Assembly: GCA_963834795.1 (NCBI GenBank)
Contig: CAWIDL010000032.1
Span: 238,278-302,277 of the forward strand
From: an uncultured delta proteobacterium
GTDB taxonomy: Bacteria; Desulfobacterota; Desulfobaccia; Desulfobaccales; 0-14-0-80-60-11
DNA length: 64,000 bases
Direction of reading: 5' to 3'
Shown: positions 8,893-62,299 of the stretch, in pieces
Numbering within the stretch: position 1 is the stretch's first letter
Layout of the letters: the number at the start of each line of letters is the position of its first letter
Translations under genes and position numbers: made by a program
Notes under the pieces: generated by a model
What the model saw: only the letters and a program-made list of their open reading frames with translations
Told to the model about the DNA's origin: nothing
The model's database searches: none

Positions 8893-9385
8893 GTTCACCC
8901 ACCTGGACGAGACCGGGCAACTGCGTATGGTGAATGTGGCCGATAAAGCCGAAACCCGGCGCCGCGCCACCGCGGCCTGCCGCATCATCGTGGGTCCCAA
9001 GGTCTTTCCCCTGCTCCAGGCCGGCCGCCTTCCCAAAGGCGATGTTTGGGCGGCCGCCAGACTCGCCGGCATCATGGCCGCCAAGAACACGGCTCAATTG
9101 ATCCCCTTGTGCCATTCCCTGCCCCTTACCTTCGTTGCGGTGGATTTTACCCTGGAACCCCAGGAATGGGCGGTGCGCATCCAGACCCGGGTCGAGACCC
9201 AGGCCCGCACCGGGGTGGAGATGGAAGCCTTGACCGCCGCGGCGGTGGCTGCTCTTACCATCTACGATATGTCCAAGGCAGTGGATCGCGGCTTGGTGAT
9301 CGGTGAGTTGCTATTGCTGGAAAAAAGCGGTGGAACCAGCGGCGATTACCACCGACCGCAGGCCTCCCGCGAAATCTTGAGCTAA
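8885..9385 (+). CDS. moaC: Cyclic pyranopterin monophosphate synthase MoaC
   Basis: LTHLDETGQLRMVNVADK..LIPLCHSLPL..RTGVEMEALTAAAVAALTIYDM is a full-length MoaC signature. It overlaps the upstream gene by 8 nt. Confidence 0.9.
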   Translation: MSKFTHLDETGQLRMVNVADKAETRRRATAACRIIVGPKVFPLLQAGRLPKGDVWAAARLAGIMAAKNTAQLIPLCHSLPLTFVAVDFTLEPQEWAVRIQTRVETQARTGVEMEALTAAAVAALTIYDMSKAVDRGLVIGELLLLEKSGGTSGDYHRPQASREILS

Positions 9386-9409
9386 TTGGATATGGCCGGA
9401 GTTTAACCG

Positions 9410-9772
9410 ATGAATGAGCAACGTCTAGAATTTTTTCGCAACCTCTTAAAGGAGCGACTCGGGGAAATCCTGGGGGAAGCCGACAAGACCAGGACCGACA
9501 TGACCAGCGCGTTGGCCCCTTTCCCTGACCCCACCGACCGGGCCACCCTGGAAACCGACCGCAATTTTACCCTCAGAATTCGGGACCGGGAACGCAGGCT
9601 CATCACCAAGATCCGGGAGGCCCTGGAACGCATCGATGACGGGACCTATGGCAACTGTGAGATTTGCGGGGGTGAAATCAGCGAGAAACGTCTCATCGTC
9701 CGTCCGGTGACCACCATGTGCATTGGCTGCAAGTCCCGGCAAGAAGCCCTGGAGCGGGCTCGGGGCCATTAA
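9410..9772 (+). CDS. dksA: DksA/TraR-family C4 zinc-finger protein
   Basis: Coiled-coil N-terminus and CEICGGEISEKRL..CIGCK, the four-Cys finger typical of DksA. Confidence 0.8.
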   Translation: MNEQRLEFFRNLLKERLGEILGEADKTRTDMTSALAPFPDPTDRATLETDRNFTLRIRDRERRLITKIREALERIDDGTYGNCEICGGEISEKRLIVRPVTTMCIGCKSRQEALERARGH

Positions 9773-15579: not shown

Positions 15580-16326
15580 ATGAAAAACTCACTCATCAGC
15601 TTGGTGGCCATGATGGTGCTGCTTCTGTCCGCTTCCGGCGGCCAGGCGGCGGAACCGGATAAAATGGCCCGGGCCGACGCCCTGATGGAGAGCCCTGCTT
15701 TGGATTCCCAGCAGGCGCAGCAGGCCCTGGCCCTCTATGAAGAGCTGCTGCCAGGATCCCCGCTGTTGTTGGTCCGGCTGGCGCGCACCTGCTTCGTTTT
15801 GGGGGATATGGCCCCCGACGCCTCCCGGGCCGGCTATTATGAGAAAGGTCTGACCTACGCCGAAAAACTCGTGGCCCAACAGCCTGACGGGGTCGCCGGC
15901 CATTACTGGAAGGCCTTGAATCTGAGCGGTCTGGCCGACGTCAACCGCCTCCGCGGCTTTAAACTGCTGCCGCAAATCATGGACGAACTCGAACGGTCCC
16001 TGGCCCTGGATGAAACCTTTGACCAGGCCGGGGCCCACCGGGTGTTGGGGCGCATCTATTTTGAGGCGCCCGGCTGGCCCGTGTCGGTGGGAGACCGGAA
16101 AAAATCCTTGGAGCAGCTAACAGCCGCGGTCCGCCTGGCGCCGGACAACAGCACGAACCACCTCTATCTGGCGGAAACCTTGCTGGCCATGGGGGGGAAG
16201 GCCCAGGCCCGAGAGGAGCTGGAGAAGGTTTTGCAGCCCCGGCGCCACGCCATCAGCCCGCAGGACCTGGAGGAAGATCACCGGGAAGCCCGGGGCCTGC
16301 TAAAAAAGCTGGAGGAGCAGGAATGA
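15580..16326 (+). CDS. Secreted TPR protein, TatT-like (TRAP-T-associated TPR component family)
   Basis: Signal peptide MKNSLISLVAMMVLLLSASGGQAA, then ..GHYWKALNLSG.. and ..GRIYFEAPGWPVSVGDRKKS..; the overall layout resembles TatT-family proteins. Confidence 0.55.
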   Translation: MKNSLISLVAMMVLLLSASGGQAAEPDKMARADALMESPALDSQQAQQALALYEELLPGSPLLLVRLARTCFVLGDMAPDASRAGYYEKGLTYAEKLVAQQPDGVAGHYWKALNLSGLADVNRLRGFKLLPQIMDELERSLALDETFDQAGAHRVLGRIYFEAPGWPVSVGDRKKSLEQLTAAVRLAPDNSTNHLYLAETLLAMGGKAQAREELEKVLQPRRHAISPQDLEEDHREARGLLKKLEEQE

Positions 16327-16343
16327 GTTCTGAGTTTTGAGTT

Positions 16344-16390
16344 GTAGGGGCGACAGTGGCACAGGCTTCCAGCCTGTGATCTGGTCGCCC
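16344..16390 (+). repeat. Two-tier hairpin repeat (family A), copy 1
   Basis: Sequence gtaggggcgacagtggcacaggcttccagcctgtgatctggtcgccc. Outer stem is gggcgac/gtcgccc; inner perfect stem is cacaggct/agcctgtg. Confidence 0.85.
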
Positions 16391-16682
16391 GGTTTCGAGT
16401 TTCGAGTTCCTTTAACCAGACACCCAGGGCGTGCTAGGCACGCCGCCTGAGGTTCGGCGGCCACGAGCCGCCCTAGTAACTGGACAAGCTTTCCCTTATC
16501 CCTATAATAATTACATAATTACCTTACAACCTGGTGCTTTGATGATTATGTTAAAATATTATTTTGGGGGAGAATCCTATCCGCAAGAGAAGGCTCAGGC
16601 CGGACTGGGGGAGGCGTGCACGCATCATCCGGCCGATTTGCCTGCTACCCCAAAAAACCGAATTTGCGCTTAAGGGACGAGC

Positions 16683-19493
16683 TTGCTTCCTGAGAATAGC
16701 TTAAATCGACGTATCAAGATTTTTCTCAAGGGGATAGAACTCTTCGCCTGGAACATCATTGTAGTCTCCGTGTTGCTGGCCGGGGTGGCAGTCTATTATA
16801 CTTTTCATGGCCTGACCATCCGCACCAGCCGGAATGACCTGGTGGCCAGCGATAGGCGCCTCCTTCAACTCACCCACCAAATGGATCGGGCTTTCGGAGG
16901 CCGGGACGGCTTGGTGGTGGTGGTGGAAAACGGCCACCCCGAGGTGACCACTAAATTCGCCGATGCCCTGGCAACCGAGTTGCGCCGCTATCCCGACCGG
17001 TTTCCCGATCTCTTTTATCGCCTGGACCCGAAGAGTTTCACGCGCTGGGCCCTTGTCTATTTGGATACCAATGACCTGATCAAGCTCAAAGATAACCTGG
17101 TGGGTCAGAAAAATCTGTTGTCCGGACTGGCTGCCGAGCCGGGCCTGATGACTTTCTATAAGCTGGTTAACGAACAGATGACCCGGGCCATGATCGGCAA
17201 TCTGTTCACCGGGTTTCTGACAGAAGACAAAGGGCAAGAGCAGCCCGACCTAGACCTCTTAAACGCCAGCCTCAAAGAATTGCGTCTTAGCCTGGAAGGG
17301 AACCACCCTTATGTCTCTCCCTTGAATGCCCTTTATCCCAAGGAGTTGGGCGACCTTAGCCAAGAGGGCTACTTTTTTACGGAGAATAACAAATTCCTGA
17401 TGTTCCTGGTTACTCCGCAGCCCGACGGCTACAAGACCATCCATGAGGATGTAAAACTCCTGCGGGACGCGGTGGCTCGGGTTAAAGGCCGATTCCCCGA
17501 GATCCAGGCGGGGGTTACCGGACCGGACGCATTGCAATCGGATGAAATGAGCAGCGCCATGAAGGATGTGACCCTGGCCACCTGGTTATCCCTGTTAAGC
17601 CAGATGATCTTGCTCATCGTCTTTCTGCGGAGCCTGAAGCGGACCTTGGCGGAAGGGATGGCGCTGATTATCGGCATGTGCTGGACTTTTGGGTTGGTTA
17701 CCCTGGTGGTGGGGCATCTGAATATCCTTTCGCTGGTCTTTGCACCCTTACTCCTGGGGCTCACTATCGATTACGGCATCCATTGGTTCTGCCGCTTGGA
17801 AGAAGAGCTAGCGGGCCAACATTGCAGCGCCGAAGCCCTGGCGCGCACTTTTCGCAGGTCGGCCCCGGGCATCATTTATGCGGGCCGGGCGGCGATAGTT
17901 TCCTTTTTGCCCCTGGCCTTTGTGAGCTTCAAGGGCTTGGCCGAATTGGGGCTGATCCTCATCATGGGCGTTGTGGCGATGCTGGTCGCCACTCTGTTGC
18001 TGGTACCGGCCCTGGTCATGGTCAGTGAAAGATGCGCGCCGGCTGGAATTCCCGAGCATCGTCCGGCGTCCCCCAGCCCTTTTCTGCACTTGCATTGGAC
18101 CCATCGCCGGTTGATCGTGGCGCTGGGGGTCTTGATCACGGCTCTGGGCGGCGTCTGTCTGCTACAGGTTCCCTTTGATTTAAATCCCCTGCATCTGCAA
18201 AATCCCAAAACCGAATCAGTGGTGTGGGAAAACAAGCTCCTGGAAGGTTCCAAATATTCCACGTCTTACGGCGCCCTGGCCACCGCGACGCTGGAGGAGC
18301 TGGAGGCCAGGAGTGAGGCGTTGAAAAAGCTGTCCACGGTTTCGCATGTGGAATCGGTGCTATCTTTTCTGCCCGCCAAGATGGGGGAGAAGCGCCGGAT
18401 TTTGACCGAGATGGAGCCGGTCTTGAACTCGGTAAATTTTGCCGGCGCCACGGCCAGGCCTGCCAACCCCAAGGAATTGACCGCCATTTTAGGGCGGATT
18501 AATTTTAAGGTGGGTGAAGCCGCCAAAAATTTGGGACAAGAAGAGGCGGCCACTAAACAGCAGGTAGAAGAGACCCATCAGCTGATCAATAAAATCATCC
18601 CCCTGCTTAATACGGACCTGAATCCCCAGGCCGCGGCGCGCCTGGCCGACTTCAATCACGATTTTGGCGCGGATCTAAAAGACAAATGGGGCCTGCTGCG
18701 GGATTATGCGAAATCAGCCCTGGACTCAGCCCCGCCCACACAGGCGAATTTGCCCCGGTCCGTGCAGGAGCGGTTCATCAGCCCGCAAGGGACTTATCTA
18801 CTCAGGGTGTTTCCTTCCCAGGATGTCTGGAATTTTGAACCCCTGAAACTGTTCGTGAATAGTCTCTGGAGCGTCGACCCCAATGTGGTGGGGGATCCGG
18901 TGCTCCTCTATGTCTTTACCAGGGGCTTTCGCAATTCCGTCCTCTTCGCCGCAGGAATTGCCTTGGTGGCCATTGCCGCCATGCTGGTGATATTTTTCCG
19001 CAGCCTGACATTGGCGCTGCTGGCCTTTATTCCCCTGGTGGTGGGGACCGGCCTAACCTTGATCCTGATGTGGGTTCTGAACCTCTCCTTCAATCAGGCC
19101 AATGTGCTTTTCCTGCCATTAATTTTGGGAGAGGGGATCGAATTTGGGATAATCATCCTGACCCGCTGGCAGCTGGAGGAATCGACCCGGGCCATTGCTC
19201 TGCCGGCCAGTACCGCCAAAGGGGTGGCCCTGGCGGCCTTGACCACCACCGTGGGGTTCGGGAGCTTGATGGTCTCCGGACACAGGGGCATCTTCAGCCT
19301 GGGGCTATTGGCGACGGTGGGAAGCCTCAGCGTTTTAGTGGCTTCTCTGAGCATTTTGCCGGCCTTTCTCCGTCTGTGGGAAAAAGATTATGAACCGGGG
19401 CAGCCAGCCGTTGCCCATTATCTGGGTTTAGGACAATGGCTGCACCATAGCTTGAGGAAAAAATCCGATGAAAAAGCAACTCTCGATCATTAG
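16683..19493 (+). CDS. MMPL/RND-superfamily transporter (HpnN-like, 936 aa)
   Basis: Twofold topology: TM1, a large periplasmic loop, a 5-TM bundle, then a second loop and a second 5-TM bundle. This is typical of MMPL/HpnN-type RND exporters. TTG start preceded by aaggga. Confidence 0.8.
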   Translation: MLPENSLNRRIKIFLKGIELFAWNIIVVSVLLAGVAVYYTFHGLTIRTSRNDLVASDRRLLQLTHQMDRAFGGRDGLVVVVENGHPEVTTKFADALATELRRYPDRFPDLFYRLDPKSFTRWALVYLDTNDLIKLKDNLVGQKNLLSGLAAEPGLMTFYKLVNEQMTRAMIGNLFTGFLTEDKGQEQPDLDLLNASLKELRLSLEGNHPYVSPLNALYPKELGDLSQEGYFFTENNKFLMFLVTPQPDGYKTIHEDVKLLRDAVARVKGRFPEIQAGVTGPDALQSDEMSSAMKDVTLATWLSLLSQMILLIVFLRSLKRTLAEGMALIIGMCWTFGLVTLVVGHLNILSLVFAPLLLGLTIDYGIHWFCRLEEELAGQHCSAEALARTFRRSAPGIIYAGRAAIVSFLPLAFVSFKGLAELGLILIMGVVAMLVATLLLVPALVMVSERCAPAGIPEHRPASPSPFLHLHWTHRRLIVALGVLITALGGVCLLQVPFDLNPLHLQNPKTESVVWENKLLEGSKYSTSYGALATATLEELEARSEALKKLSTVSHVESVLSFLPAKMGEKRRILTEMEPVLNSVNFAGATARPANPKELTAILGRINFKVGEAAKNLGQEEAATKQQVEETHQLINKIIPLLNTDLNPQAAARLADFNHDFGADLKDKWGLLRDYAKSALDSAPPTQANLPRSVQERFISPQGTYLLRVFPSQDVWNFEPLKLFVNSLWSVDPNVVGDPVLLYVFTRGFRNSVLFAAGIALVAIAAMLVIFFRSLTLALLAFIPLVVGTGLTLILMWVLNLSFNQANVLFLPLILGEGIEFGIIILTRWQLEESTRAIALPASTAKGVALAALTTTVGFGSLMVSGHRGIFSLGLLATVGSLSVLVASLSILPAFLRLWEKDYEPGQPAVAHYLGLGQWLHHSLRKKSDEKATLDH

Positions 19494-20061
19494 CCTGACT
19501 CTGGTGGTAATCTGGATAGGGGTCCTCCGGGCTGGGGCTGAGAGCCCTACCGCCTATGTGCGGGGGATCCTGGACAAGACTATGGCGATCCAGAATGATG
19601 CTTCCCTGGACGCCAAGGCCCGGAGTCGGGCCATCCATCAGATCATTGAACAAGATTTCGATTTTCCGATGATGGCTAAGGATACTCTGGGGGCCACCTA
19701 TGGACAGATCAGCGCGGGGCAACGACAGCAATTCACCGGTACTTTCGGTTACCTATTCCAGGCTTCTTACTCCCGCATGGTTCTCAACTTCCTCAAGCAG
19801 GAGAACATCCAATACGGGCAGGAACGCCAGGAAGGCGGCGGCAAGGCCAGGGTAGATACTTCTCTGGTTCGGACCAATGATACCATCCCGGTAACCTATC
19901 TCATGCACTCCACCTCCAGGGGCTGGCTGCTTTATGACGTGGCGGTGGACGGGGTAAGCATTCTGGAAAACTACCGCAATCAATTCAGCCGGGTCATCCG
20001 CACCAAGTCCTTCGGATTTCTCCTGGAGCGGATGGAAGAACAGCGCCGGGCGACCGAGTAA
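19468..20061 (+). CDS. MlaC/Ttg2D-family periplasmic lipid-binding protein
   Basis: Signal peptide, then ..ILDKTMAI.., ..IEQDFDFPMMAKDTLG..W.., ..F..LFQASYS.. and ..GWLLYDVAVDGVSILENYRNQF.. match the MlaC (toluene tolerance Ttg2D) pattern. It overlaps the RND gene by 26 nt. Confidence 0.8.
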   Translation: MKKQLSIISLTLVVIWIGVLRAGAESPTAYVRGILDKTMAIQNDASLDAKARSRAIHQIIEQDFDFPMMAKDTLGATYGQISAGQRQQFTGTFGYLFQASYSRMVLNFLKQENIQYGQERQEGGGKARVDTSLVRTNDTIPVTYLMHSTSRGWLLYDVAVDGVSILENYRNQFSRVIRTKSFGFLLERMEEQRRATE

Positions 20062-20172: not shown

Positions 20173-20595
20173 ATGCATAACAATCTCTTTCGATTGGCCA
20201 TAGGTTTTGCAATTGTTTCTTCCTGCCTTGCATGTGCGGCTAAGCGCCCAATTTTGGCTCCCAATGAGCATCTCAAAGAAATAGGACTAGAGGCTGCCCA
20301 GCGTGATGTAGATGAGTGCATCCGTCTAGCTGCCGAGGCCGGACCAGGGGCTAGGCGGGGCAAGCAGATGGCCGGCCAAACTGCAGGGGGCGCAGTTGTT
20401 GGTGCAGCGGCTGGTGCTGTCGCGGGGGCAATCTCAGGAGGTCCTGGACTTGGTGCTGCGGCCGGGGCGGCTGGCGGAGCCACGGCAGGTCTTTTGCGTG
20501 GACTCTTCGGATCGAGTGATTTGGATGCTGGGCAGCAGCGTTATGCTGAGGACTGTCTACGTCAGAAAGGGTACGACCCAATTGGCTGGCGATAG
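20173..20595 (+). CDS. Lipoprotein with glycine-zipper segment
   Basis: Lipobox ..VSSCLAC.. followed by the G/A-rich GGAVVGAAAGAVAGAISGGPGLGAAAGAAGGATAG (glycine-zipper-like). The locus is AT-richer than its neighbours. Confidence 0.6.
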   Translation: MHNNLFRLAIGFAIVSSCLACAAKRPILAPNEHLKEIGLEAAQRDVDECIRLAAEAGPGARRGKQMAGQTAGGAVVGAAAGAVAGAISGGPGLGAAAGAAGGATAGLLRGLFGSSDLDAGQQRYAEDCLRQKGYDPIGWR

Positions 20596-20640: not shown

Positions 20641-20787
20641 GGTTCCCAAGCCCCTGCTTGGGAACCCTTTTTTTGCAAAGCTCCGCTTTGCTAAAGGAAC
20701 ATCAAGTTGCAGTTAAATATCAGGCAAACACTCCCCCAAGCAGAGCTTGGGGCAAATCTGCGTTCCCAAGCAGGAGCTTGGGAACGA
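20641..20787. repeat. Composite triple-hairpin repeat (gttcccaag..cttgggaac family), copy 1
   Basis: Three palindromes: ggttcccaagcccctgcttgggaacc, cccccaagcagagcttgggg and cgttcccaagcaggagcttgggaacg. Collinear with 52563..52716. Confidence 0.85.
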
Positions 20788-27246: not shown

Positions 27247-28208
27247 AACGCAGGGAATTCTTGTGGTGTCTGGCTCTGGGACTGGCGGGGGGCTGGGCCC
27301 TCAGCCGCCCTAATAAAGAACTCCGCCCAGCCGCGGCGACGGCCGGGGGCCCGGAGATGCGCCTGGCCTTTCTGGCCGATGCGCACCTGAAAGACGCTGA
27401 CCAGGGGCGCCCCGAGGCCCTGGCCCTGGCCCGGGCGGTGGCGGAGTTGCGAGCCCTCAAGCCCGGGCCCGATCTGGTCCTGTTCGCCGGAGACCTGGCC
27501 CACCGCGGCCACCCCGGGGCCCTGGCCCTGGGGAAGGAGATCCTCGCCGGCCTGCCGGGGCCTCTGCTAATGCTCATGGGCGAGGGCGACGGCCTGCCGG
27601 ACGGGGCCGCCCCCTGGCGCCGCCTCTTTGGGGAACCCCGGTTTTCCCAGGTCTTACGTAAAGCCGGAAACGGCAACCAGCAAACTGCCCTCCAGATTGT
27701 AGGCCTGCACACCGCCTGGTGTCCGGGCCCCGGGGGACCGTTCTTCCGGGTGGGGGAGCCCGGCCGCCACCGCCTGGCCCGGCAGCTTGCCGGGATGGAC
27801 CACGAAGCGCCCCTCATCCTCCTCTCCCACGCCCCCCTGGACCTCATCTATCGGCCCTGGCAACAGTGGACCGCGGACTGCCGCGAGGTGGCGGCCCTGC
27901 TGGCCGGCTTCCGCCAGGTCCTTTGCCTCCATGGCCATACCCATAATGCAGGGGCCAGGGGTCAGGGGCCAGGGGTCAGTGAAGTTTATGATAGGGACGG
28001 GATCTTTTTGACGGAAAACGGAAAACGGAAAACGGAAAACCGTCTTTTACACCTTTCTCTACCCGCCACTGCCTGGCCCGGCCCCCAGGCATTGCAGGGG
28101 ACCCCGGCCAGCTCCGTCCCCGGGCTGGGCCCCGCCGGCTGCGGCTGGGTGCTGCTTGAGGCAGATGGTGGAGTCTTCCGGTTCCAACCGCGCATCTGGC
28201 GATCATAG
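27243..28208 (+). CDS. Tat-signal metallophosphoesterase (calcineurin-like) with an in-frame repeat insertion
   Basis: Tat-like N-terminus MKRREFLWCLALGLAGG. Motifs ..FLADAHL.., ..FAGDLAHRG.. and ..LHGHTHN.. are present. Nucleotides 27951-28044 are an intergenic-type repeat read in frame. Confidence 0.7.
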   Translation: MKRREFLWCLALGLAGGWALSRPNKELRPAAATAGGPEMRLAFLADAHLKDADQGRPEALALARAVAELRALKPGPDLVLFAGDLAHRGHPGALALGKEILAGLPGPLLMLMGEGDGLPDGAAPWRRLFGEPRFSQVLRKAGNGNQQTALQIVGLHTAWCPGPGGPFFRVGEPGRHRLARQLAGMDHEAPLILLSHAPLDLIYRPWQQWTADCREVAALLAGFRQVLCLHGHTHNAGARGQGPGVSEVYDRDGIFLTENGKRKTENRLLHLSLPATAWPGPQALQGTPASSVPGLGPAGCGWVLLEADGGVFRFQPRIWRS

Positions 28209-28307
28209 CGCTAATTTTCTCGCTGCATCAATATATGTCGATCCTGGCGAGTAATTAGCTATCTTACGGAATCTCTTATAATTTTTTTAGATGAAAAGTA
28301 TGCTAAC

Positions 28308-29111
28308 ATGTCCCCGATGGGAGGATTCGCCCCAAGAATAGAAACTCCAGGGGATTTTCCAAGGGCTTGGCAATCCCCAAAAAAATTTAGCCTCGATAGC
28401 CAGGGCTGCCGCATAATCTCGGATCATCTTATGTTTATTAAAAAAACAATCGAGGACTTATACGAGAAGGCTTATAATCTTTTATTTATTAAAGAAGACT
28501 ACCAAAATGCCATTAAGGTTTTTAGAAAAATTATCCAGCAAAAACCGGATGAGTTTGAGGCCTTCTTCTGGCTCGGTCAAACCTATCTACAGGCCACAGG
28601 CGACTACCAGCAAGCTATAGAGAGTTTTAAGCAGGTAATCCGTCTTCAACCCAATAACGCTGAAGCTTATTTCTCTTTGGGGAGAGCATACGGCCTACTA
28701 GGACATCACCAGGACGAATTAGAGAATTATCTCCAAGCAATTCATATCAAACCAGATTATGCCGAGGCATACGGTAACCTTGGATCAACTTACATAGACC
28801 TCGGTCGTTTTCCTGAAGCGTTGGAGGCTTACAAGAAAGCATCTTCCCTTAAACCTAACGATCCCGAAATATACTATAATATTGGTACTGTGTTTTGTCA
28901 GCTAAACGAAAATGAGATGGCGGTAAAGGCTCTGGAACTGTGTATTCAGCTAAAGCCTGACCATGCGAGGGCCTATTATAATTTGGGTTTAACATATGGA
29001 AAACTTGGTCGATATGATGACGCTTTGGAAGCTTTAAGACAGGTCATTCGCCTTGAACCAGATTCTATAGAGGCACAGTATGCCTTATTAAATATTATTG
29101 GCAATATTTAA
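28308..29111 (+). CDS. TPR-repeat protein (AT-rich islet)
   Basis: Six to seven canonical TPR units (..AEAYFSLGRAYGLLGHHQDELENYLQAIHIKPDYAEAYGNLG..). The true start may be the Met at 28431. Confidence 0.7.
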   Translation: MSPMGGFAPRIETPGDFPRAWQSPKKFSLDSQGCRIISDHLMFIKKTIEDLYEKAYNLLFIKEDYQNAIKVFRKIIQQKPDEFEAFFWLGQTYLQATGDYQQAIESFKQVIRLQPNNAEAYFSLGRAYGLLGHHQDELENYLQAIHIKPDYAEAYGNLGSTYIDLGRFPEALEAYKKASSLKPNDPEIYYNIGTVFCQLNENEMAVKALELCIQLKPDHARAYYNLGLTYGKLGRYDDALEALRQVIRLEPDSIEAQYALLNIIGNI

Positions 29112-29238
29112 TCTGACTTTTCTGGTAAATTGAACAACTATATATCATGTGAGAATATCAGATGACCAACAGAATATAAATTATGTAACAAATATGATGG
29201 CATTTAATTTCGGGGGTTATGTTGCAAGAGGTTGAGCT

Positions 29239-29679
29239 ATGTATAAAGTGCTGGCTGCAATGCATATGGAAATGAATGAAGGGTGGGCTTGGGTTACCAA
29301 TGAGGGTTTTCCTCCTCGGTCGGTCATTAAGATCAAAAACAAAAACAATAGAAAAGTAGTGTATTGCGAGTATCTCGAAATAGATCCTAACTTTCGGGAG
29401 GTGTACAATAATACGTCAAAAAGGGAGAAGATTGACCTTGGAGAAAAAACCATAGTGTTAAACGGCTGGTATAGAAAAAGACTCGGGGGAATAAGCACCA
29501 AATCAAACTATGATCTTAAAATTACTCAAGCAAATGGCTGGTGGGGTAGATTTCGGGTATGTACAGATCATCCACAGGTAGTGGTCCGCTTTTCTATAAA
29601 GTTGGCAGTTATCAGTGTCGGTCTTGCAGCATTGAGTGTTTGCCTTGCAGTACTTAGCATTTGGATGGTATCCAAATGA
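29239..29679 (+). CDS. Hypothetical membrane-anchored protein (146 aa)
   Basis: AT-rich ORF with an SD (gagg) and a C-terminal TM helix LAVISVGLAALSVCLAVLSIWMV. The N-terminal ~100 aa are faintly beta-barrel-like (..VIKIKNK..IVLNGWYRKRLG..). No family assigned. Confidence 0.45.
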   Translation: MYKVLAAMHMEMNEGWAWVTNEGFPPRSVIKIKNKNNRKVVYCEYLEIDPNFREVYNNTSKREKIDLGEKTIVLNGWYRKRLGGISTKSNYDLKITQANGWWGRFRVCTDHPQVVVRFSIKLAVISVGLAALSVCLAVLSIWMVSK

Positions 29680-29762
29680 AACGCGGATTTTTTAAGGTCA
29701 TGATGCTTCGGTCAGAATGAAAATTCTGCCTGTTTCGGGGTTTTCCCATACCTGCTAAAGCC

Positions 29763-31400
29763 TCACTCCCACAACCCCCCCGCCTTTTCAGGTTCCCCCT
29801 TGCCCAAATCCGTCCGGCCGGCCAAACTAAAAAAAAACTCCACCTGGTTCTCCAGGCGGGCGATGAGGGGAGGCAAGCTCCCCGGATCGATGGCCGAGAT
29901 GGCCACCCCGTGATGGATACGGCATTGCGCCCCGGCCAGATTGCGGTCCACCCGGTCGGCTTTGTTAAAGACCGTAAGGAGGGGCTTGTCCTGCAGATTA
30001 AGGGAGCCCAGGATGTCCTCCACCGCGGCCATCTGCTCCACGAAGCGGGGATTGCTCAGGTCCACCACGTGGATGAGGAGGTCGGCCTCCGCCAATTCCT
30101 CCAGGGTGGCCTTAAAGGCTTCCAGCAGGTTCTTGGGCAGGTTTTTGATGAAGCCCACGGTGTCGGTGATAATCACTTCCCGCTCCCGGGGAAAGCGCAG
30201 GCGGCGGCTGGTGGGGTCCAGGGTGGCGAACAGGCGGTCCTCGGAGAGCACTCCGGCGCGGGTCAAGGCATTGAACAGGGTGGATTTGCCGGCGTTGGTG
30301 TAGCCGATGATGGAGAGAATCGGCAGGCCCTGGCGCCGCCGGGACTGGCGCCGCTCCCGGCGTTCCGCCCCCACCCCGGCCAGTTCCTGGCGCAGCCGGT
30401 GCAGGCGGTCCCTGAGGCGGCGGCGGTCCATTTCCAGCTTGCTCTCCCCCGGACCCCGGCCGCCGATGCCCCCCATCAGGCGGGAGAGGGCGTCTCCTTT
30501 GCCCACCAGGCGGGGCAGCAGGTAGTTCACCTGGGCCATCTCCACCTGGAGCTTGCCTTCCCGGCTGCGGGCTCGCTGGGCGAAGAGATCCAGGATCAGT
30601 TGGGTGCGGTCCAGAACCTTGAGTTCGGTGAAGTCCGTGATGGAGCGCACCTGGGAAGGGCTCAGCTCGGCGTCGAACACCAGCAGGTCCGCACCCTGTT
30701 GCAAGGCCTGGATGACCAGTTCTGAAAGACGGCCCTTGCCCATGAGAAAGCGGGGATCGAAGCGCGACCGGCGCTGGATGAGGGTGGCCGCCACCTCCAG
30801 GCCCGCGGACCTGGCCAGCTCGCAGAGTTCCTCCATGGAGTCTTCCGCGGCCGCCCGGTTATTGCCGGTGACCCCGATCAAGATGCCCCGCTCCCGGCCC
30901 CTCCCCTCCTCCCCGGCCGTCTCCACCTGTGCCAGTTCTTCCTCCAGGGAAGCCACCAGGGCGGCAAAATCGAGGCTCAAGGCCCCGGGGTGCGAGGCCT
31001 CGATAATCCCCCAGTTATGCCCGTCCAGGGGCCGAGGCAAGAGGTGGGCCACCTGAATAGCCCCCGCCTGCCCATCGGCACCGGCGGTAACCGCGGCCAC
31101 CGCGTCCAGGCGCAGCAAGGCCAGGTCCATCAAGTCGTCTCGGGTCAGGATGCTGGAGTCCAGGTGGGTATGGATCAGGCGGAGGCCCTTGAGGCGGCCC
31201 TTAGCGCCGCGCTCCCGGGGCAGGGGGGGAATAACCAGGCCCTTGGCGTCCCCCACCAGGACGTGGCTCACCACGCCCTGGCGATCCAGGAGCACCCCTA
31301 CCTGCCGGTGCAGGGAGCGGGAGATTTCTGCCAGTTGCCTGGCCAGCTCCGGGGTGAGAAGCAAGGCCAGCGGCACCTTGCGGCGGTAGAGCCGCTCCAA
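29763..31400 (-). CDS. hflX: GTPase HflX (long form with ~115-aa N-terminal extension)
   Basis: ..GKLQVEMAQVNYLLPRL.., the P-loop GYTNAGKSTLFNALT, ..DTVGF.. and ..NKAD.. Confidence 0.9.
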   Translation of the reverse strand: MERLYRRKVPLALLLTPELARQLAEISRSLHRQVGVLLDRQGVVSHVLVGDAKGLVIPPLPRERGAKGRLKGLRLIHTHLDSSILTRDDLMDLALLRLDAVAAVTAGADGQAGAIQVAHLLPRPLDGHNWGIIEASHPGALSLDFAALVASLEEELAQVETAGEEGRGRERGILIGVTGNNRAAAEDSMEELCELARSAGLEVAATLIQRRSRFDPRFLMGKGRLSELVIQALQQGADLLVFDAELSPSQVRSITDFTELKVLDRTQLILDLFAQRARSREGKLQVEMAQVNYLLPRLVGKGDALSRLMGGIGGRGPGESKLEMDRRRLRDRLHRLRQELAGVGAERRERRQSRRRQGLPILSIIGYTNAGKSTLFNALTRAGVLSEDRLFATLDPTSRRLRFPREREVIITDTVGFIKNLPKNLLEAFKATLEELAEADLLIHVVDLSNPRFVEQMAAVEDILGSLNLQDKPLLTVFNKADRVDRNLAGAQCRIHHGVAISAIDPGSLPPLIARLENQVEFFFSLAGRTDLGKGEPEKAGGLWE

Positions 31401-45378: not shown

Positions 45379-46619
45379 ATGAAAAACTCCGTAACCTTCA
45401 AGGCCCTGCGCCATCGCAATTTTCAGCTCTTTTTCACCGGCCAGCTGATCTCCCTCACCGGCTCCTGGATGCAGTCGGTGGCCTTCAGTTGGCTGGTCCT
45501 GGTGCTCACCAACTCCGCCCTCTACCTGGGACTGGTTGGCGCCCTGCAAACCCTGCCGGTGCTGCTCTTCTCCTTTCTGGGGGGCGTGGTGGCGGACCAC
45601 ACCAGCAAACTGCGCCTGATGTTCATTACGCAGACATCCCTATTGCTGCTGGCCCTGGCCCTGGGGCTGCTGGTGGACCTGCAGCTCATCAAGATTTGGG
45701 ACCTCTGCCTCATCGTCTTCCTCTCCGGCACGGTAATGGCCTTCGATATCCCGGCGCGCCAGGCCTTCATCGTGCAGCTGGTGGGCAAGCCGGACCTGCC
45801 CAACGCCATTGCCCTCAACTCCAGCCTGTTCAACGCCACCCGGGTGATGGGCCGGCGGTGGGCGGGGTGGTGATCGCGGCCATGGGCATGGCCAACTGCT
45901 TCTATCTCAACGCCGCCAGCTTTCTGGCGGTGCTCCTGGCCCTGGCGCTCCTCAAACTGCCTCCCTCCCAGCCGGCGCCCTGGACGCCCCTGTGGCGCGC
46001 CTGGAAGGAACTCGGAGACTACCTGCGGACCAGGCGGGAGGTGCGGCTGATCCTGCTGCTGATGACCCTGGTGGCCGTCCTGGCCATGCCCTATTACGTG
46101 CTGCTGCCCATGCTGGCCCGGAATACCCTGGGGGTGGGGCCCAGTGGCTTCGGCATCCTCATGGGCGCCAGCGGCCTGGGGGCCTTTCTGGGCGGCCTCA
46201 TCCTGGCCCGCCGCCTGCAGAGTAGCCCTCCCATGCCCTCCTTCCTGACAGGTCAGGCCCTGTTTCTCCTGGGGCTGGTGGGCCTGGGGCTCTGCGGCTC
46301 ATATTACGCCGCCCTGGTCTTCATGTTCATTATCGGCTTCGGCATGGTGACCCAACTCTCCACCGGCAACAGCCTGCTGCAGCTCAACGTACCCGATGAA
46401 CTGCGGGGCCGCCTCATGAGCCTCTTCGGGCTCATCGTCATGGGCTTCGCCCCGATAGGCAGCCTCATTTACGGGGTGGCGGCCCACTTCGCCGGCCCGG
46501 GACCCACCATCGCCGGAGGGGGCCTCTTGGCCGCCCTGGGCGCCGGCATCATCCTGCTGCGCTACCCTGATCTGCGCCGCCTCGAGTTCACCGACCTGGG
46601 ACCCGCCGAAAGTGATTGA
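45379..46619 (+). pseudogene. MFS transporter (MFS_3/EntS-like) interrupted by a 1-nt frameshift
   Basis: Frame 1 (45379..45873) gives TM1-6 and ends ..FNATRVMGRRWAGW*. Frame 2 continues ..GPAVGGVVIAAMGMANCFYLNAASF.. to 46619. Restoring one G/C in atgggccgg (about 45849-45853) gives the canonical ..ATRVMGPAVGG.. Confidence 0.8.
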
Positions 46620-46707
46620 CCTTTGTTGGGAGCTTGGGAGAAATAGCCACACTTGCAGAATAAATTAGAAATTAATTTTTAAGGGTGAAAAATCTATTTT
46701 TTCCACC

Positions 46708-46794
46708 TTGCATTTTTGGGAAGATGAGTTATATTGACCTCTATAAGAGGTCATATGACCTCAATTATAGTTCGCATGACCTATATAGGAGGTC
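46708..46794 (+). promoter_or_regulatory. Candidate sigma70 promoter plus TGACCT-type operator palindromes upstream of the wHTH gene
   Basis: -35 ttgcat (46708-13), 16-nt spacer, -10 tatatt (46730-35). Immediately after come gacctct-ata-agaggtc (46736-52), a tgacct half-site (46756) and gacctatataggaggtc (46778-94), which overlaps the SD aggagg. Confidence 0.45.
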
Positions 46795-46801
46795 TATCCA
46801 A

Positions 46802-47131
46802 ATGTTGGCGCCCCTGCTCGGATCAATTAGTGGCGAGAGAACACTACTTTTTATTTTTGCGAGAGGAGAAGGGTACGCGCGCGAGATAGCGAGATTTTAT
46901 AATACAGATTTGACTCCTATCCAAAGGAAACTTGAAAGGTTTGAAGCAGATGGGGTTTTATACAGCCGCTTTGCCGGGAGAACTCGTCTATATTCGTTCA
47001 ATCCAAGATACGTATTTAAGCCAGAGATCGAAAACCTTCTCAAAAAGGCTTTAACTTTTTACCCCCCAAATGAGCGTGAAGCGCTTTTAATGAATAGGCG
47101 TAGACCCAGGAGGAGTGGTAAGCCATTATGA
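46802..47131 (+). CDS. Winged-helix DNA-binding protein (antitoxin-like, AbiEi/MarR-type)
   Basis: ..ERTLLFIFARGEGYAREIARFYNTDLTPIQRKLERFEADGVLYSRFAGRTRLYSFN.. is a wHTH. Start moved to the Met at 46802, which has a strong aggagg SD. The stop overlaps the next start (ATGA). Confidence 0.6.
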   Translation: MLAPLLGSISGERTLLFIFARGEGYAREIARFYNTDLTPIQRKLERFEADGVLYSRFAGRTRLYSFNPRYVFKPEIENLLKKALTFYPPNEREALLMNRRRPRRSGKPL

Positions 47132-47665
47132 AGCAAATCAAAGATATGTCGATCGGAGAATTAGCAGCATTTATATGTAGCCATCTTAAACGCAGAGGCA
47201 TTGATGTTGTCTTATCAGGGGGAAGTTGTGTCTCAATTTACACTGAAAATAAATATGCTTCCCTTGATTTAGATTTCATTGAATTTAATTATATTGATAG
47301 AAAGAAATTAAAAAAAGAGCCTTTTGGAAATAGGATTTCATGAAAAAAATAAGTATTTCGTAAATCCTGAAACAGATATCTTCTTGGAATTCCCACCAGG
47401 CCCCCTTAATACTGGGGAAGAACCAGTAAAAGAAGTTATTACAATAAATTTTCCCACAGGTGAATTAAGGATCATTTCTCCGACTGATTGTGTTAAAAAT
47501 AGACTCGCTGCATATTATCATTGGGGAGATCAACAAAGTTTAGAGCAAGCAGTATTGGTTGCAAAAGATAACAGGATAAGTCTGGAAGAAATAGAACGAT
47601 GGTCTAAGGTAGAGGATAAGATGTCGGTTTTTCACGTAATAAGAAATCGCCTTGAAGTCCGCTAA
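47128..47665 (+). pseudogene. Nucleotidyltransferase-fold (AbiEii/DUF6036-like) protein split by a frameshift in an A7 run
   Basis: ORFs 47128..47343 and 47324..47665 are consecutive frames. Removing one A from aaaaaaa (47310-47316) gives the continuous ..DRKKLKKSLLEIGFHEKNKYF.. The N-terminus ..VVLSGGSCVSIY.. resembles the NTase G-S motif. Confidence 0.55.
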
Positions 47666-47836
47666 ATTATTTCTAATTTAAACAAGTTGGCCTTCAGCAA
47701 TTTCTCCCTGATTTCCCCTGAGCCCCCAAGAAGATTTCAAAAGCCCCCCATGCAGAGATTTTGAAATTGGCGATGACTAAAATTTAGTCATTGTCGATCC
47801 TTTTCAAAATGACCCACTAGCCGACGCCAAAATATC

Positions 47837-47865
47837 TTGTGATTTGCTGATATTTCTGTTATAAA
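47837..47865 (+). promoter_or_regulatory. Candidate promoter of the rpsB-tsf-pyrH-frr-uppS cluster
   Basis: ttgtga, 17-nt spacer, tataaa, about 120 nt upstream of rpsB and followed by a very GC-rich leader (47890-47975). Confidence 0.35.
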
Positions 47866-47984
47866 AATTCGATTTGCAATAAATTACTCACGCCCCGCCA
47901 GGGCGGGCCGGTGCCGGCGCCAGTTGCCAAAGGCGGCGGTGGCCCCGCCGGCGGCGGAGCGGTGGACTAACCGGAGGAAAACCC

Positions 47985-48833
47985 ATGTCTTACGTCACCA
48001 TGAAGGAACTGCTGGAGGCCGGGGTGCATTTCGGCCACCAGACCCGCCGCTGGAACCCCAAGATGGCGCCTTATATCTTCGGGGCCAGAAACGGCATCCA
48101 CATCATCGACCTGCAAAAAACCGTCCAGTTCTTCAAGACCGCCTATAATTACGTGGTGGAACGGGTGGCGGACGGCGGCCTCGTCCTCTTCGTGGGCACC
48201 AAGAAACAGGCCCAGGACGCCATTGCCGAAGAAGCCAAACGCTGCGGCATGTTCTACGTCAACCACCGCTGGCTGGGAGGCATGCTCACCAACTTTTCGA
48301 CCATCAGCCGTTCCATTGCCCGCCTGAAGGAGTTTGAGGCCATGAAGGAAGATGGCTCCCTCCGCCGCTTTCCCAAAAAAGAGGTCCTGATGATGGAGAA
48401 GAAGGCGGCCAAGCTGGAGCGCTCCCTGGGCGGCATCAAGAATATGGGGCGCCTCCCCGATATCGTCTATGTGGTGGACCCCCGCAAGGAAGACATCGCG
48501 GTGATGGAAGCCCGCAAGGTCCACGTCCCCTTGCTGTCCATCGTGGACAGCAACTGCGATCCCACGGAGATCGATTATCCCATCCCGGGCAATGACGATG
48601 CCATCCGCGCCATCCGCCTCCTCACCGCCCGCGTCGCCGACGCGGTGCTGGAAGGCAAAAAACTGGCGGAAGAGCGCCTCCAGGGACAGTTGGATAAGGA
48701 GGCTGCCGCGGCCCTGACGGCAGAAGCGGCGCCGGCCCCGGCCCCGGAGGTCGTGTTCCCGGAACCCTCGGAGGCCCCGCCGGCCCCGCCGGCCGAAGTC
48801 TCCGCTGAGGGAGCGGCCAAAACCGAGGCCTAA
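47985..48833 (+). CDS. rpsB: 30S ribosomal protein S2 (with A/P/E-rich C-terminal tail)
   Basis: [38 protein letters not shown].. Confidence 0.95.
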
Positions 48834-57895: not shown

Positions 57896-58097
57896 TAATC
57901 AACCCATCGGGGTGAATATGGCTCTTCGGCGACAAGGTTTCGAACTCGGCTTTCCCCGCACGCAATCGCGGTAAGCCACGCAGCTGGGATCCACCCTGGC
58001 GTAAGCGGAATTTCGAAGAACTGGGGAACAGACTATGACTGGTCCTAGTGCTCAACCGAAGCTGAACCCGGATCTCGAGAAAACCTTCACTGCCGAA

Positions 58098-58253
58098 AGA
58101 TGGGCGGGTGCGATGGAAATAGGCCTCACGATGCTCGCAGCGGGGACGCCGGAACCCCTCAGGCCAGCGCAGGCGAAACAATTGCTTTTGGCAGGCTTTC
58201 TCGGTGCTAAACCGTTTCTGAAATTGCATCAGGCTGAGTGCTTTCTGTTGCAT
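58098..58253 (-). pseudogene. IS1595-family transposase remnant (N-terminal zinc-ribbon region only)
   Basis: ..MQFQKRFSTEKACQKQLFRLRWPEGFRRPRCEHREAYFH.. resembles the IS1595 N-terminus with degraded Cys ligands. The remainder of track ORF 57813..58253 is non-homologous read-through. Confidence 0.5.
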
Positions 58254-58421
58254 TGCCTTGCTCCATTTGTCTAAATATTTACGCTAATTGTACCATATTC
58301 TTTAGAGCAAAGGCAATAATCGATACAAAAATATTACCCTATATTAATGCAAATAAAAGCGTCATGCTTAATTACTAATTAAGTAACAATGCTATTCATA
58401 AATTTTAAAGGGGTGAAGAAG

Positions 58422-58796
58422 ATGGAAAAAAACGGAAAGAAACAACCAAATCATGGCCATTGGGACAAAGAGTTAGAATCGGGAAAAGGTTACTGGGCCA
58501 AGGCATTCGAATCTAACTTGTACAAAGAAATAGTACGCAAGAGATTCGGTGTCGTGATCCCGCTATTGGTAGGGTTTTCTGTGCTCTTCTTCGTATTGTT
58601 TACCATACAACAGTTCTTTAGAGGCTTAGCCGACGCGATGATAATTGGGAATTTGAATTTTAATTTTATATTTTCAATGCTTATATTCCCAATTGTATGG
58701 TTAACGGGTTTATTATTCCTCCGATACATTCGCAAGCATGTATATCCCTTGGAGGACGAAATAATTAAGCAATTTTCCAGGAAGAGGGGGGAATAA
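58422..58796 (+). CDS. DUF485 (YjcH-like) membrane protein
   Basis: Two TM helices with ..LYKEIVRKRFGVVIPLL... It sits 1 nt upstream of an SSS symporter, the classic yjcH-actP arrangement. Start at MEKNGKK after aaagggg. Confidence 0.7.
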   Translation: MEKNGKKQPNHGHWDKELESGKGYWAKAFESNLYKEIVRKRFGVVIPLLVGFSVLFFVLFTIQQFFRGLADAMIIGNLNFNFIFSMLIFPIVWLTGLLFLRYIRKHVYPLEDEIIKQFSRKRGE

Positions 58797-58797
58797 C

Positions 58798-60324
58798 ATG
58801 GAACATCTTGCCATTTACATGTTCTTATTCTTAGTTACAATAACTCTAATTATCACATATATATCCGCACGTTATATGAAAACGGCTACGGATTACTATG
58901 CGGCTGGCAGAACCATTAAAGGCTGGCAAAACGGCTTGGCTATCACCGGAGAATTTCTGACTTCGGCGGCCTTCTTGGGAATAGGCGGTTTAATCGCCTT
59001 GTCGGGGATTGATGGGCAAATATTTTCTCTTACCTGGTTCGCTTCATATCTGGTGGTTTTACTCCTAGTCGCTGAAGCGGTCAGAAATTCCGGGAAATAC
59101 ACCTTTGCCGATGTGATTTCCTACCGCCTGAACCCCCGAGTAATCCGCCCAATCGCGGCGGTTACCACCTTGATTATATGCATAACGTATTTGATCCCGC
59201 AAATGGTTGCTGCTGGGGCGTTAGCTAAGTTATTGTTCGGAATTCCCGCTTCTTGGGGAATCCTTATTGTTGGCACGTTAATGGTTATCTATATCACTTT
59301 TGGGGGAATGACGGCGGCTACCTGGATTCAAATCGTCAAAGCGGTGCTCCTATTAATAGGTGCATACATACTGGCGATTTTGGTGTTGGCGAAATTCCAT
59401 TTCAGCCCAAGCGAACTGTTTGGCGCAGTCATGAATACCAAAGGGATTGAAAATAACGTGAACCCCGGGGGATGGTTAAAGAGCCCCTGGGAAAGATATT
59501 CACTGGGATTCAGCATGCTGTTCGGCACTGCTGCTTTACCCCATGTGTTGATGCGTTTTTACACCGTGCCTTCCAAGGCTTATGCCCAATCAAGCGTGGT
59601 CTGGGTCCTGACCTTTATGGCCATGTATCACGTTCTGACTTTTATCTTCGGCTTCGGCGCGGCGGTAATCGTCGGAACCAGTGTGATCAAGAGCCTGGAT
59701 CCCGGTGGAAACATGACGGTGCCGTTATTGGCACGCGCGGTCGGTGGCGGCGCAGGAACGTTTGGCGGTGAGTTTCTCATGTCATTCATCTGCTCAGTGG
59801 CGTTTATCACGATTATCGCCGCCGTTTCGGGTTTGTGTATCGCCGCTGCCAGCGCATTTTCCTATGATTTTTGGTTTAATGTGGTCAAGAGAGGCCAACA
59901 GACGCAGCCAGAACAAGTAAGAACCGCAAAGATCTCTGCGGTGATTATCGGTACTCTGGCCATTCTTTTCAGTCTGTCGGCCCAACGCCTCAACGTTGCT
60001 TACCTGGCGGGATTGGCTTTCGCCATCGCCGCCACCGTAAACCTTCCAACAATTATCTTCTCGCTATACTGGAAGAGACTAACGAACACTGGAGCAGTCA
60101 TCGGCATGATAGGTGGCACCATCGTAGCCGTAACCCTCGTGTTGACAGGCCCGCAATTTATGGGCAAGCAGGCGCTTTTCCCCTTGGCTAACCCCGGTAT
60201 CGTTAGTATCCCCATTGGGTTCCTGCTCACCTATTTGGGCTCGATATTCACTTCAGATACTGACGCTGCTCACAAATATGTGGAGTTGGCAGTTCGTTCC
60301 CAAACTGGTTTGGGCGCTGAATAA
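58798..60324 (+). CDS. Sodium:solute symporter, ActP/cation-acetate-type monocarboxylate permease
   Basis: About 13 TM helices, ..DYYAAGRTIKGWQNGLAITGEFLTSAAFLGIGG.. and ..GGMTAATWIQIVKA.. are typical of the ActP branch of the SSF. Confidence 0.8.
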   Translation: MEHLAIYMFLFLVTITLIITYISARYMKTATDYYAAGRTIKGWQNGLAITGEFLTSAAFLGIGGLIALSGIDGQIFSLTWFASYLVVLLLVAEAVRNSGKYTFADVISYRLNPRVIRPIAAVTTLIICITYLIPQMVAAGALAKLLFGIPASWGILIVGTLMVIYITFGGMTAATWIQIVKAVLLLIGAYILAILVLAKFHFSPSELFGAVMNTKGIENNVNPGGWLKSPWERYSLGFSMLFGTAALPHVLMRFYTVPSKAYAQSSVVWVLTFMAMYHVLTFIFGFGAAVIVGTSVIKSLDPGGNMTVPLLARAVGGGAGTFGGEFLMSFICSVAFITIIAAVSGLCIAAASAFSYDFWFNVVKRGQQTQPEQVRTAKISAVIIGTLAILFSLSAQRLNVAYLAGLAFAIAATVNLPTIIFSLYWKRLTNTGAVIGMIGGTIVAVTLVLTGPQFMGKQALFPLANPGIVSIPIGFLLTYLGSIFTSDTDAAHKYVELAVRSQTGLGAE

Positions 60325-60384
60325 GTAATATTGACCGCTAAAGAAGTTGATGATGTTACAAAAAAACGTAAGGAGGAAAGAATT

Positions 60385-61446: not shown

Positions 61447-61603
61447 GACTTCATAAAAAAAGTTGAGCTGTCCACAGGTAAAAATGAGGACGGCTTCTCA
61501 TACATCTACTTGAAGGCTTCCTGAAAAATAGATGCATGGCAATAAACTGATGCCGGCATGTTGAACCGCTGGCTTATAACAAAGCTAAGGAGAATAAGTA
61601 ATT

Positions 61604-62299
61604 ATGGCTATCGATGCACTTGAAATGAAACTGCGACCCCCAGAGATTCAACTCAACCCCTATCCTCCCAAAACGATAACGCTGGCCAATGGTAAGACCA
61701 TGGTGGTCCGTGAAGCAAAGCGAGAAGAATGCGGCGTGCTCCTCGGCACTGTATATCCGCTCCTGGGGGTTCCTACTGATTATTACGATGTCGTGGCCGC
61801 GCGCATGTTTTCAGAGCTCCTCGCTTGGTTCCGCTACCGCATTGCCAACGAGTTCGTGATCGTCGGTGCTATCGACGGCGTCATCGCCGGCATTGTAACG
61901 AGCCGGCACGTCGACGATCATCTCGGCATGAGCCTGCATACTCTTGCCGTCGACCGCGGACTCAGAGTTGGAGCCCAGTTGTTTGCGGCCAAGATGGAGC
62001 ATCACATGGATTATCTCAACGAGGACCAAGTCTGGATCGTCGCAGAAAGTCCGATAGGTTTCAGACGGTGGATGATCGAGTACGAGCTGGAGGACCGCTC
62101 CTCAGGCTTTCCTAACATCAGGCACGAACTGGGCGGCGTTCCCACCTACGCCCTTACCCGAAAGCTGTGGGAAAAACACAAGGCGGACAAGTGCACCGGC
62201 ACGAGGCCGGTTCCGGCGAACATTCTGGCCACTGCCGATAGGCTGAAAATGCCCGAGGAATATCCGCAGATATTGGGTTACAAGAGGAGTAAGCAATGA
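61604..62299 (+). CDS. Hypothetical protein, weakly GNAT-fold-like (231 aa)
   Basis: ..VVREAKREE.., ..FVIVGAIDGVIAGIVTS.. and ..LAVDRGLRVGAQLFAAKMEHHM.. are reminiscent of GNAT beta4-alpha3 (the R-x-x-G-x-G/A region). Its stop overlaps the next start (ATGA). Confidence 0.4.
   Translation: MAIDALEMKLRPPEIQLNPYPPKTITLANGKTMVVREAKREECGVLLGTVYPLLGVPTDYYDVVAARMFSELLAWFRYRIANEFVIVGAIDGVIAGIVTSRHVDDHLGMSLHTLAVDRGLRVGAQLFAAKMEHHMDYLNEDQVWIVAESPIGFRRWMIEYELEDRSSGFPNIRHELGGVPTYALTRKLWEKHKADKCTGTRPVPANILATADRLKMPEEYPQILGYKRSKQ

Follow-up and report, generated by a model that had tools for sequence, protein, structure and literature searches.

What a periplasmic carrier of the MlaC family does when the neighbouring gene encodes a resistance-nodulation-division (RND) transporter, and not the ATP-binding cassette (ABC)/MCE complex of the Mla system, is the question raised by a locus from an uncultured delta proteobacterium (GTDB lineage Desulfobacterota; Desulfobaccia; Desulfobaccales; 0-14-0-80-60-11). 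The stretch analysed, referred to here as the window, comprises 64,000 nucleotides of contig CAWIDL010000032.1 in assembly GCA_963834795.1 (positions 238,278 to 302,277, forward strand). A sequence-only reading of the window had placed three genes at this locus, and an independent gene call on an identical public contig (L001) has the same three:

15580-16326, forward strand: TPR gene, encoding a secreted all-helical tetratricopeptide repeat (TPR) protein of the BstC/TatT family, 248 amino acids
16683-19493, forward strand: RND gene, encoding an HpnN-like MMPL/RND inner-membrane transporter, 936 amino acids, TTG start
19468-20061, forward strand: MlaC-like gene, encoding an HpnM-like, MlaC-fold, predicted periplasmic lipid carrier, 197 amino acids with a signal peptide

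These genes had been read together as a candidate lipid module with a hybrid route from pump to carrier. Our analysis points to a smaller unit with known relatives: the RND and MlaC-like genes (16683-19493 and 19468-20061) are probably a translationally coupled, two-gene exporter and shuttle of the HpnN/HpnM type. As for the TPR gene, it stands beside this pair as a neighbour and not as a demonstrated member.

The domain assignments of the sequence-only reading (TatT-like TPR, MMPL/HpnN-type RND and MlaC) hold up against profile libraries, the TatT-like one at a score below cut-off. The RND protein matches Pfam MMPL in two stretches (E = 2e-33), and on NCBIfam models it scores 521.9 bits with HpnN (TIGR03480), 270 with BstA, 151 with HAE3 and 17 with HAE1; on NF052374 it reaches 319 bits against a cut-off of 1100. 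Among proteins of known structure, Burkholderia HpnN (5KHN/6WU0) is matched at 178 bits (E = 2.5e-51), whereas MmpL4/5 and MexB are matched at 23-28 bits. Because of this difference the transporter is predicted, from sequence comparison, to be of the lipid-export HpnN type and not a drug pump. Residues D344, T818 and L826 of Burkholderia multivorans HpnN, which reportedly serve in the proton relay or channel, align with D363, a threonine near position 855 and L862 of the window protein, and these positions are invariant or nearly so in our family alignments A2 and A3.

The historic naming of MlaC homologues as Ttg2 invites the view of the pair as an efflux system for solvents or drugs, of the "toluene tolerance" type, in which the RND protein would act as a multidrug pump. 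A weak Pfam ACR_tran match in the RND protein (25.4 bits, under cut-off) and the TolC-like outer-membrane efflux protein (OEP) genes that accompany relatives in a basal clade, described below, could be cited in its favour. Set against these are the scores of 17-25 bits on HAE1-type models versus 522 for HpnN, the absence of any membrane-fusion protein or OEP gene from the window, and the present understanding of Ttg2/Mla proteins as lipid transporters. With HpnN so far above HAE1 and MexB, we reject drug efflux on the family scores and give it almost no credence.

The MlaC-like protein matches Pfam MlaC with 122.8 bits, and within that family it leans towards HpnM (TIGR03481, 84.1 bits) versus the NCBIfam MlaC equivalog model (23 bits). 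Its N-terminus, MKKQLSIISLTLVVIWIGVLRAGA/ES, reads as a signal peptide. In an AlphaFold2 model with a mean predicted local distance difference test score (pLDDT) of 87, the top 11 Foldseek matches are all MlaC/Ttg2D structures, with template modelling (TM) scores of 0.65-0.81, so that the protein is predicted to combine an MlaC fold with an export signal. The locus thus resembles the Mla system (MlaFEDB-MlaC-MlaA) in its periplasmic MlaC-fold carrier and in the idea of lipid shuttling between two membranes, but it differs in having a proton-driven RND protein and not an ABC/MCE complex as inner-membrane partner, in the low score of its carrier on the equivalog model, and in the lack of an adjacent MlaA, MlaD, MlaE or MlaF gene. 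That no Mla ABC/MCE partner is present, as the sequence-only reading held, stands for the roughly 10 kb around the locus, where none is annotated. The neighbour families clustered from related loci likewise include no Mla ABC/MCE genes, and no MlaA/HpnS-like or other conserved acceptor genes.

The end of the RND gene and the start of the MlaC-like gene share 26 nt (19468-19493). When one genome of each species was scanned with a 10-sequence RND alignment (A3), 80 related RND loci with identities of 94-40% emerged, every one of them from Desulfobacterota. The six-frame open reading frames (ORFs) of these loci were searched with hidden Markov models built in this analysis. An MlaC-like gene lies directly downstream of the RND gene in 53 of the 73 loci with enough downstream sequence, across identities from 94% to 40%, and 17 RND paralogs are without an MlaC partner. 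The overlap is 26 nt in 18 loci, 32 nt in 7 and 4 nt in 8. Because the same overlap recurs in 18 related loci, the 26-nt overlap is conserved and not a product of chance, and the tight coupling that had been read from the window alone is borne out.

Clustering of neighbouring genes and a neighbour-joining tree separate these loci by context. In the window clade the pair stands on the forward strand between a reverse-strand SSB gene followed by the TPR gene on one side and a reverse-strand RecJ gene on the other. A sister clade at 64-68% identity has a reverse-strand LysR gene ahead of RND and MlaC; an LPG_synthase_C gene and an ABC transporter also lie upstream, and polysaccharide genes (Wza/Wzz/KpsF) follow downstream. 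In a basal clade at 40-44% identity, drawn from Syntrophales, Desulfobacterales and Syntrophorhabdales, an HpnL-like gene and a TolC-like OEP gene accompany RND and MlaC. Several metagenome-assembled genomes (MAGs) carry two to four RND paralogs each, for instance L032, L048, L054 and L064 in one MAG and the pairs L010/L016, L012/L019, L014/L017 and L015/L070. The HpnN-like RND paralogs of Desulfobaccales have an MlaC partner in some cases only, and several of them adjoin sigma-54 activators.

The pair of the basal Desulfobacterota clade is part of genuine hopanoid clusters (shc, hpnI, hpnH) that also hold a TolC-like gene. Squalene-hopene cyclase (SHC) is encoded in loci L083 and L079 (789 and 815 bits; cut-off 431), and HpnI in L049, L051, L076 and L084 (312-356 bits; cut-off 310). 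Homologues of SHC also led to two contigs with complete hpn clusters, comprising shc, an hpnG-like PNP_UDP_1 gene, an hpnA-like epimerase gene and an hpnH-like radical SAM gene with DUF3463, as well as GT21, YdjC, SQS_PSY and B12 radical SAM genes; these clusters, too, contain MlaC, LPG_synthase_TM, OEP and MMPL genes. In L049 and L051 the HpnI gene adjoins RND paralogs of Desulfobaccales-type clades, and in L051 the paralog, complete with its MlaC partner, lies 1.4 kb from HpnI. The window copy, by comparison, is one of several Desulfobaccales paralogs that stand away from hopanoid genes. The OEP-RND-MlaC locus of a Desulfobacca sp. (L053) has no hpn neighbours, a search with the SHC of L079 gave no Desulfobaccales label among the 120 matches listed, and a literature search on hopanoids in Desulfobacca turned up nothing useful.

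The organization of the hopanoid clusters themselves (L076-L089, L092 and L093) is worth describing. The TolC-like OEP gene lies directly 5' of the HpnN-like RND gene, and the clusters also encode an HpnL-like LPG_synthase_TM protein, an MlaC-like protein and, in L092, PagL-like beta-barrel proteins; they hold neither a membrane-fusion protein gene nor an MlaA/HpnS gene. The outer-membrane end of the hopanoid route in Desulfobacterota could therefore be different from the one proposed for Proteobacteria. In L076, L078, L082, L083 and L087, a conserved set of genes stands upstream of OEP-RND, encoding an NTP_transferase, an unannotated 270-amino-acid protein, a class-III aminotransferase, a GFO/IDH/MocA (inositol-dehydrogenase-like) oxidoreductase and one or two CDP-alcohol phosphatidyltransferases of the IPCT/DIPPS type. 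This set suggests that a lipid head group of the inositol or aminocyclitol kind is made.

In TIGRFAMs, HpnN and HpnM are defined by the hopanoid genes with which they are associated, and HpnM is a subfamily of MlaC. The pairing seen in the window is already known as hpnN/hpnM of TIGR03480 and TIGR03481, and a Mla-like hopanoid shuttle is a published hypothesis: the preprint of Lawrence et al. (2025, PMC12324291) proposes that hopanoids pass from HpnN to the MlaC-like HpnM and on to an MlaA-like lipoprotein, HpnS. The same preprint notes extra mlaC-like copies beside hpnN and a separate HpnN clade in Desulfobacterota. A full-text literature search found no other paper linking MlaC with HpnN. 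The hybrid RND-carrier route of the sequence-only reading had accordingly been proposed before.

The mechanism that we favour follows this logic. A proton-driven MMPL/RND protein would take an envelope lipid of great hydrophobicity out of the inner membrane and pass it to the co-expressed periplasmic MlaC-fold carrier, which would ferry it towards the outer membrane. Homology, folds, the conserved coupling and the tie of the basal clade to hopanoid genes are shown by the analysis; the direction of transport, the transfer to the carrier and the cargo are inferred. The likeness to HpnN-HpnM (5KHN/5KHS/6WU0) lies in the best match of the window RND protein, in the adjoining signal-peptide-bearing MlaC-fold gene, in the shared proposal of extraction by an RND protein and carriage by a soluble MlaC-like shuttle, and in the position of same-phylum relatives inside shc/hpn clusters. 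The unit would have descended from the OEP-HpnN-HpnM set of Desulfobacterota hopanoid clusters, and may be one of several Desulfobaccales paralogs that left those clusters, relocated in the window's genus to a place beside a pre-existing BstC/TatT-like TPR gene. As for the cargo, the first candidate, which we put forward tentatively, is a hopanoid or a lipid of related kind, polycyclic or bulky in some other way; a different envelope lipid is nearly as likely.

The main rival to this account differs from it in cargo only, and holds that the pair moves ordinary glycerophospholipids or aminolipids as an RND-driven analogue of MlaFEDB-MlaC in outer-membrane lipid homeostasis. All solved MlaC/Ttg2D relatives bind phospholipids, the window copy and the sister clade are without hpn neighbours, the sister clade adjoins an LPG_synthase_C gene and envelope polysaccharide genes, and the number of RND paralogs suggests several substrates. 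This has to be weighed against the preference of the carrier for the HpnM over the MlaC model, the closeness of the RND protein to HpnN, the ancestral context of the family in the shc/hpn cluster, and the L051 paralog that keeps both its MlaC partner and a position near HpnI. On balance we regard a phospholipid or aminolipid cargo as rather unlikely, though it deserves to be taken seriously.

Several observations tell against an HpnN/HpnM-type exporter for hopanoid-like lipids, and they concern both the proteins and their setting. The RND protein falls below the curated TIGR03480 cut-off (521.9 against 751.85 bits), as does the MlaC-like protein below that of TIGR03481 (84.1 against 160.1 bits). 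The 64-kb window has no SHC-like ORF and no hpn gene, and no hopanoid genes of the kind for which the sequence-only reading had advised a look in the genome were found near the window-clade loci or those of the sister clade either. The window copy has no OEP and no adjacent MlaA/HpnS-like gene, and it differs in this both from the proposed HpnN-HpnM-HpnS route, with its MlaA-like HpnS, and from the basal Desulfobacterota relatives with their TolC-like OEP. There are up to four RND paralogs per genome, which implies diversified substrates; MlaC proteins can also work in retrograde transport; and the RND-MlaC pairing is known as a shuttle by proposal only. As to the low family scores, proteins of shc-linked Desulfobacterota loci score alike: their RND proteins reach 526-549 bits on the HpnN model, next to 522 for the window protein, and their MlaC-like proteins 57-81 bits on the HpnM model, next to 84. 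The sub-threshold scores thus reflect a divergent phylum-level clade and not a different family.

The passage of bulky lipids, hopanoids among them, through the periplasm is an unsolved problem for which the pairing of an RND protein with an MlaC-like protein is the current leading hypothesis. The locus and its relatives extend this pairing well beyond Proteobacteria, to a phylum where shc/hpn clusters are its ancestral setting, a TolC-like protein takes the place of MlaA/HpnS, and it has diversified in Desulfobaccales into several paralogs per genome. They provide material for two questions, the specificity for substrate and the identity of the outer-membrane acceptor. The window copy alone adds little to either, being one more divergent paralog, in genomic surroundings that are new; of greater interest are two findings from beyond the window, the paralog expansion and the Desulfobacterota hopanoid clusters that combine HpnN and HpnM with a TolC-like OEP and sometimes a PagL-like barrel.

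The remaining gene of the locus, that of the TPR protein, probably encodes a lipid binder too. The TPR protein matches Pfam TPR_19, scores 23.9 bits on TAtT (PF16811), just under the cut-off of 26.5, and reaches 73.5 bits on the BstC model NF045602 against a cut-off of 350. Its best PDB match by sequence is BstC (7T1S; E = 5e-19, 28% identity), and a Foldseek search with its AlphaFold2 model (pLDDT 90.8) ranks BstC 7T1S first (TM 0.68-0.73, E = 4e-9), followed by the TPR phospholipid-transfer domain of PTPIP51 (7CC7) and then TPAT (8G52/8G53). The signal peptide, MKNSLISLVAMMVLLLSASGGQAA/EP, looks like type I and has no lipobox cysteine, and the family consensus likewise lacks one. With the TatT/TPAT proteins (Tp0956; Es_TatT, 8G52/8G53) it shares a fold family whose members bind hydrophobic ligands; it differs from them in its just sub-threshold TAtT score and in having no TRAP transporter genes (TatP/Q/M) adjacent.

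The resemblance to BstC raises the possibility of a three-component module, in which the TPR, RND and MlaC-like proteins would form a BstABC-like pathway with the MlaC-fold protein in place of BstB and the BstC-like TPR protein as a second carrier or acceptor. In Methylococcus capsulatus, BstABC consists of the HpnN-like RND protein BstA, the PhnD-like binding protein BstB and the TatT-family lipoprotein BstC, which binds sterols (Zhai et al. 2024, PMC10942540). The window, too, has an HpnN-like RND gene beside that of a TatT-family all-helical TPR protein which has its best sequence and structure match in BstC. The TPR gene and the RND-MlaC pair are adjacent and on the same strand in 7 related loci (L011-L013, L017, L018, L065 and L070), as well as in L008/L009 and the window, and a relocation of the pair beside a lipid-binding TPR gene could have been selected. 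The differences from BstABC are considerable, however: the window has an MlaC-fold protein and no PhnD-like BstB, its TPR protein lacks the lipobox of BstC and hence a lipoprotein signal, no genes for sterol synthesis or demethylation are present, and the adjacency of TPR and RND genes is confined to one clade and is demonstrably secondary.

Comparison of loci shows that the TPR gene is genetically separable from RND-MlaC. Its 7 occurrences among the 73 loci all fall within the window's close clade, where the RND proteins are at least 79% identical, and no BstC-like TPR gene was found within 10 kb of the RND gene in any other clade. Each of four long contigs (L003, L005, L090 and L091) has a TPR homologue at a greater distance (56-65% identity), set in the same backbone as in the window, namely DksA, RlmN, DUF3192, GATase, Cu-oxidase_4, HEAT, SSB (reverse strand), TPR (forward), RecJ (reverse) and TrkA, and RND and MlaC genes are absent from the SSB/RecJ site in all four. 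The MAG of L003 has four RND paralogs, all elsewhere (L032, L048, L054 and L064). Since these relatives keep the site without the pair, and since the RND genes of that MAG are found at other places, the TPR gene is ancestral at the SSB/RecJ site and RND-MlaC arrived beside it in the window's lineage. A subclade of duplicates of the same RND gene (L014-L016 and L019), nested in the window clade, has a sigma-54 activator as its context and no TPR gene. The closest relative, L010, whose RND is 94% identical, has lost about 530 nt from within its TPR gene, which leaves the signal peptide fused to the last 45 or so codons, while hairpin, leader, RND and MlaC are all intact. The deletion lies between short GGCCC(A/G)GGCC repeats; the place in L010 is about 9300-9510, corresponding to 15580-16326 of the window.

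Of the module put forward by the sequence-only reading, then, the RND-MlaC part is upheld and the membership of the TPR gene is not, and the doubt which that reading itself expressed about co-transcription of the TPR gene was justified. Taking together these loci, the hairpin and promoter-like element of the spacer and the missing lipobox, we find the three-component BstABC-like pathway improbable. More improbable still, in our judgement, is that in this Desulfobaccales lineage the HpnN/HpnM-derived pair and the soluble BstC-like TPR protein were recruited to form a new periplasmic relay of three proteins, with an envelope lipid other than a hopanoid as cargo; such a relay would then belong to a group of paralogous RND-carrier routes, every one serving a different lipid class.

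Further features lie around the two-gene exporter and shuttle that we prefer:

16348-16390, forward strand: hairpin of a repeated family resembling repetitive extragenic palindromic (REP) elements, directly 3' of the TPR stop codon
16481-16508, forward strand: sigma-70-like promoter match TGGACA-16-TATAAT (11/12) in the TPR-RND spacer, a consensus match only
16520-16682, forward strand: conserved leader 5' of the RND start, kept in relocated RND duplicates
20173-20595, forward strand: small ORF for a lipoprotein with a glycine zipper (lipobox IVSSC), 3' of the MlaC-like gene and 5' of the terminator-like hairpin
20641-20666, forward strand: terminator-like GC hairpin followed by T7, a member of a second palindrome family

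The spacer between the TPR and RND genes measures 356 nt (16327-16682), one less than the 357 nt given earlier. The leader, about 130-160 nt before the RND start, is conserved in all window-clade loci, also in L016 and L019, whose upstream surroundings differ. With a promoter-like site of its own and a leader that accompanies its duplicates, RND-MlaC behaves as an autonomous, self-contained two-gene unit. The sigma-70-like match itself is not kept in L010, and other spacers show a TTGACT-type element instead. Conservation of the leader across the clade is about equal to that of coding sequence; it shows hairpin-like covariation around GGCGTGCACGC / GGCGTGCCCGCC, also holds a short ORF, and has no match in Rfam. 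It may be a regulatory leader.

The hairpin in the spacer, which had been assigned to a repeated family in the sequence-only reading, does belong to a REP-like one, because the core CAGGCT-NNN-AGCCTG has 6 copies in the window against 0.21 expected. These palindromes are intergenic and stand at 16362, 31495, 35766, 45263, 51999 and 52736. The second intergenic REP-like family, TTCCCAAGC-NNNN-GCTTGGGAAC, has 4 sites (20642, 20762, 52564 and 52689) against 0 expected, and the terminator-like hairpin downstream of the pair doubles as one copy of it. The glycine-zipper lipoprotein ORF ahead of that hairpin was considered as an outer-membrane partner and rejected, as its tblastn matches are confined to the window's own strain (L001/L002). 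It has no gene call in the public record and is probably strain-specific and outside the conserved unit. Elsewhere in the window, segments 28001-30000, 46001-48000 and 58001-62000 have a G+C fraction of 0.45-0.51, compared with about 0.60 in the remainder, and may be acquired islands.

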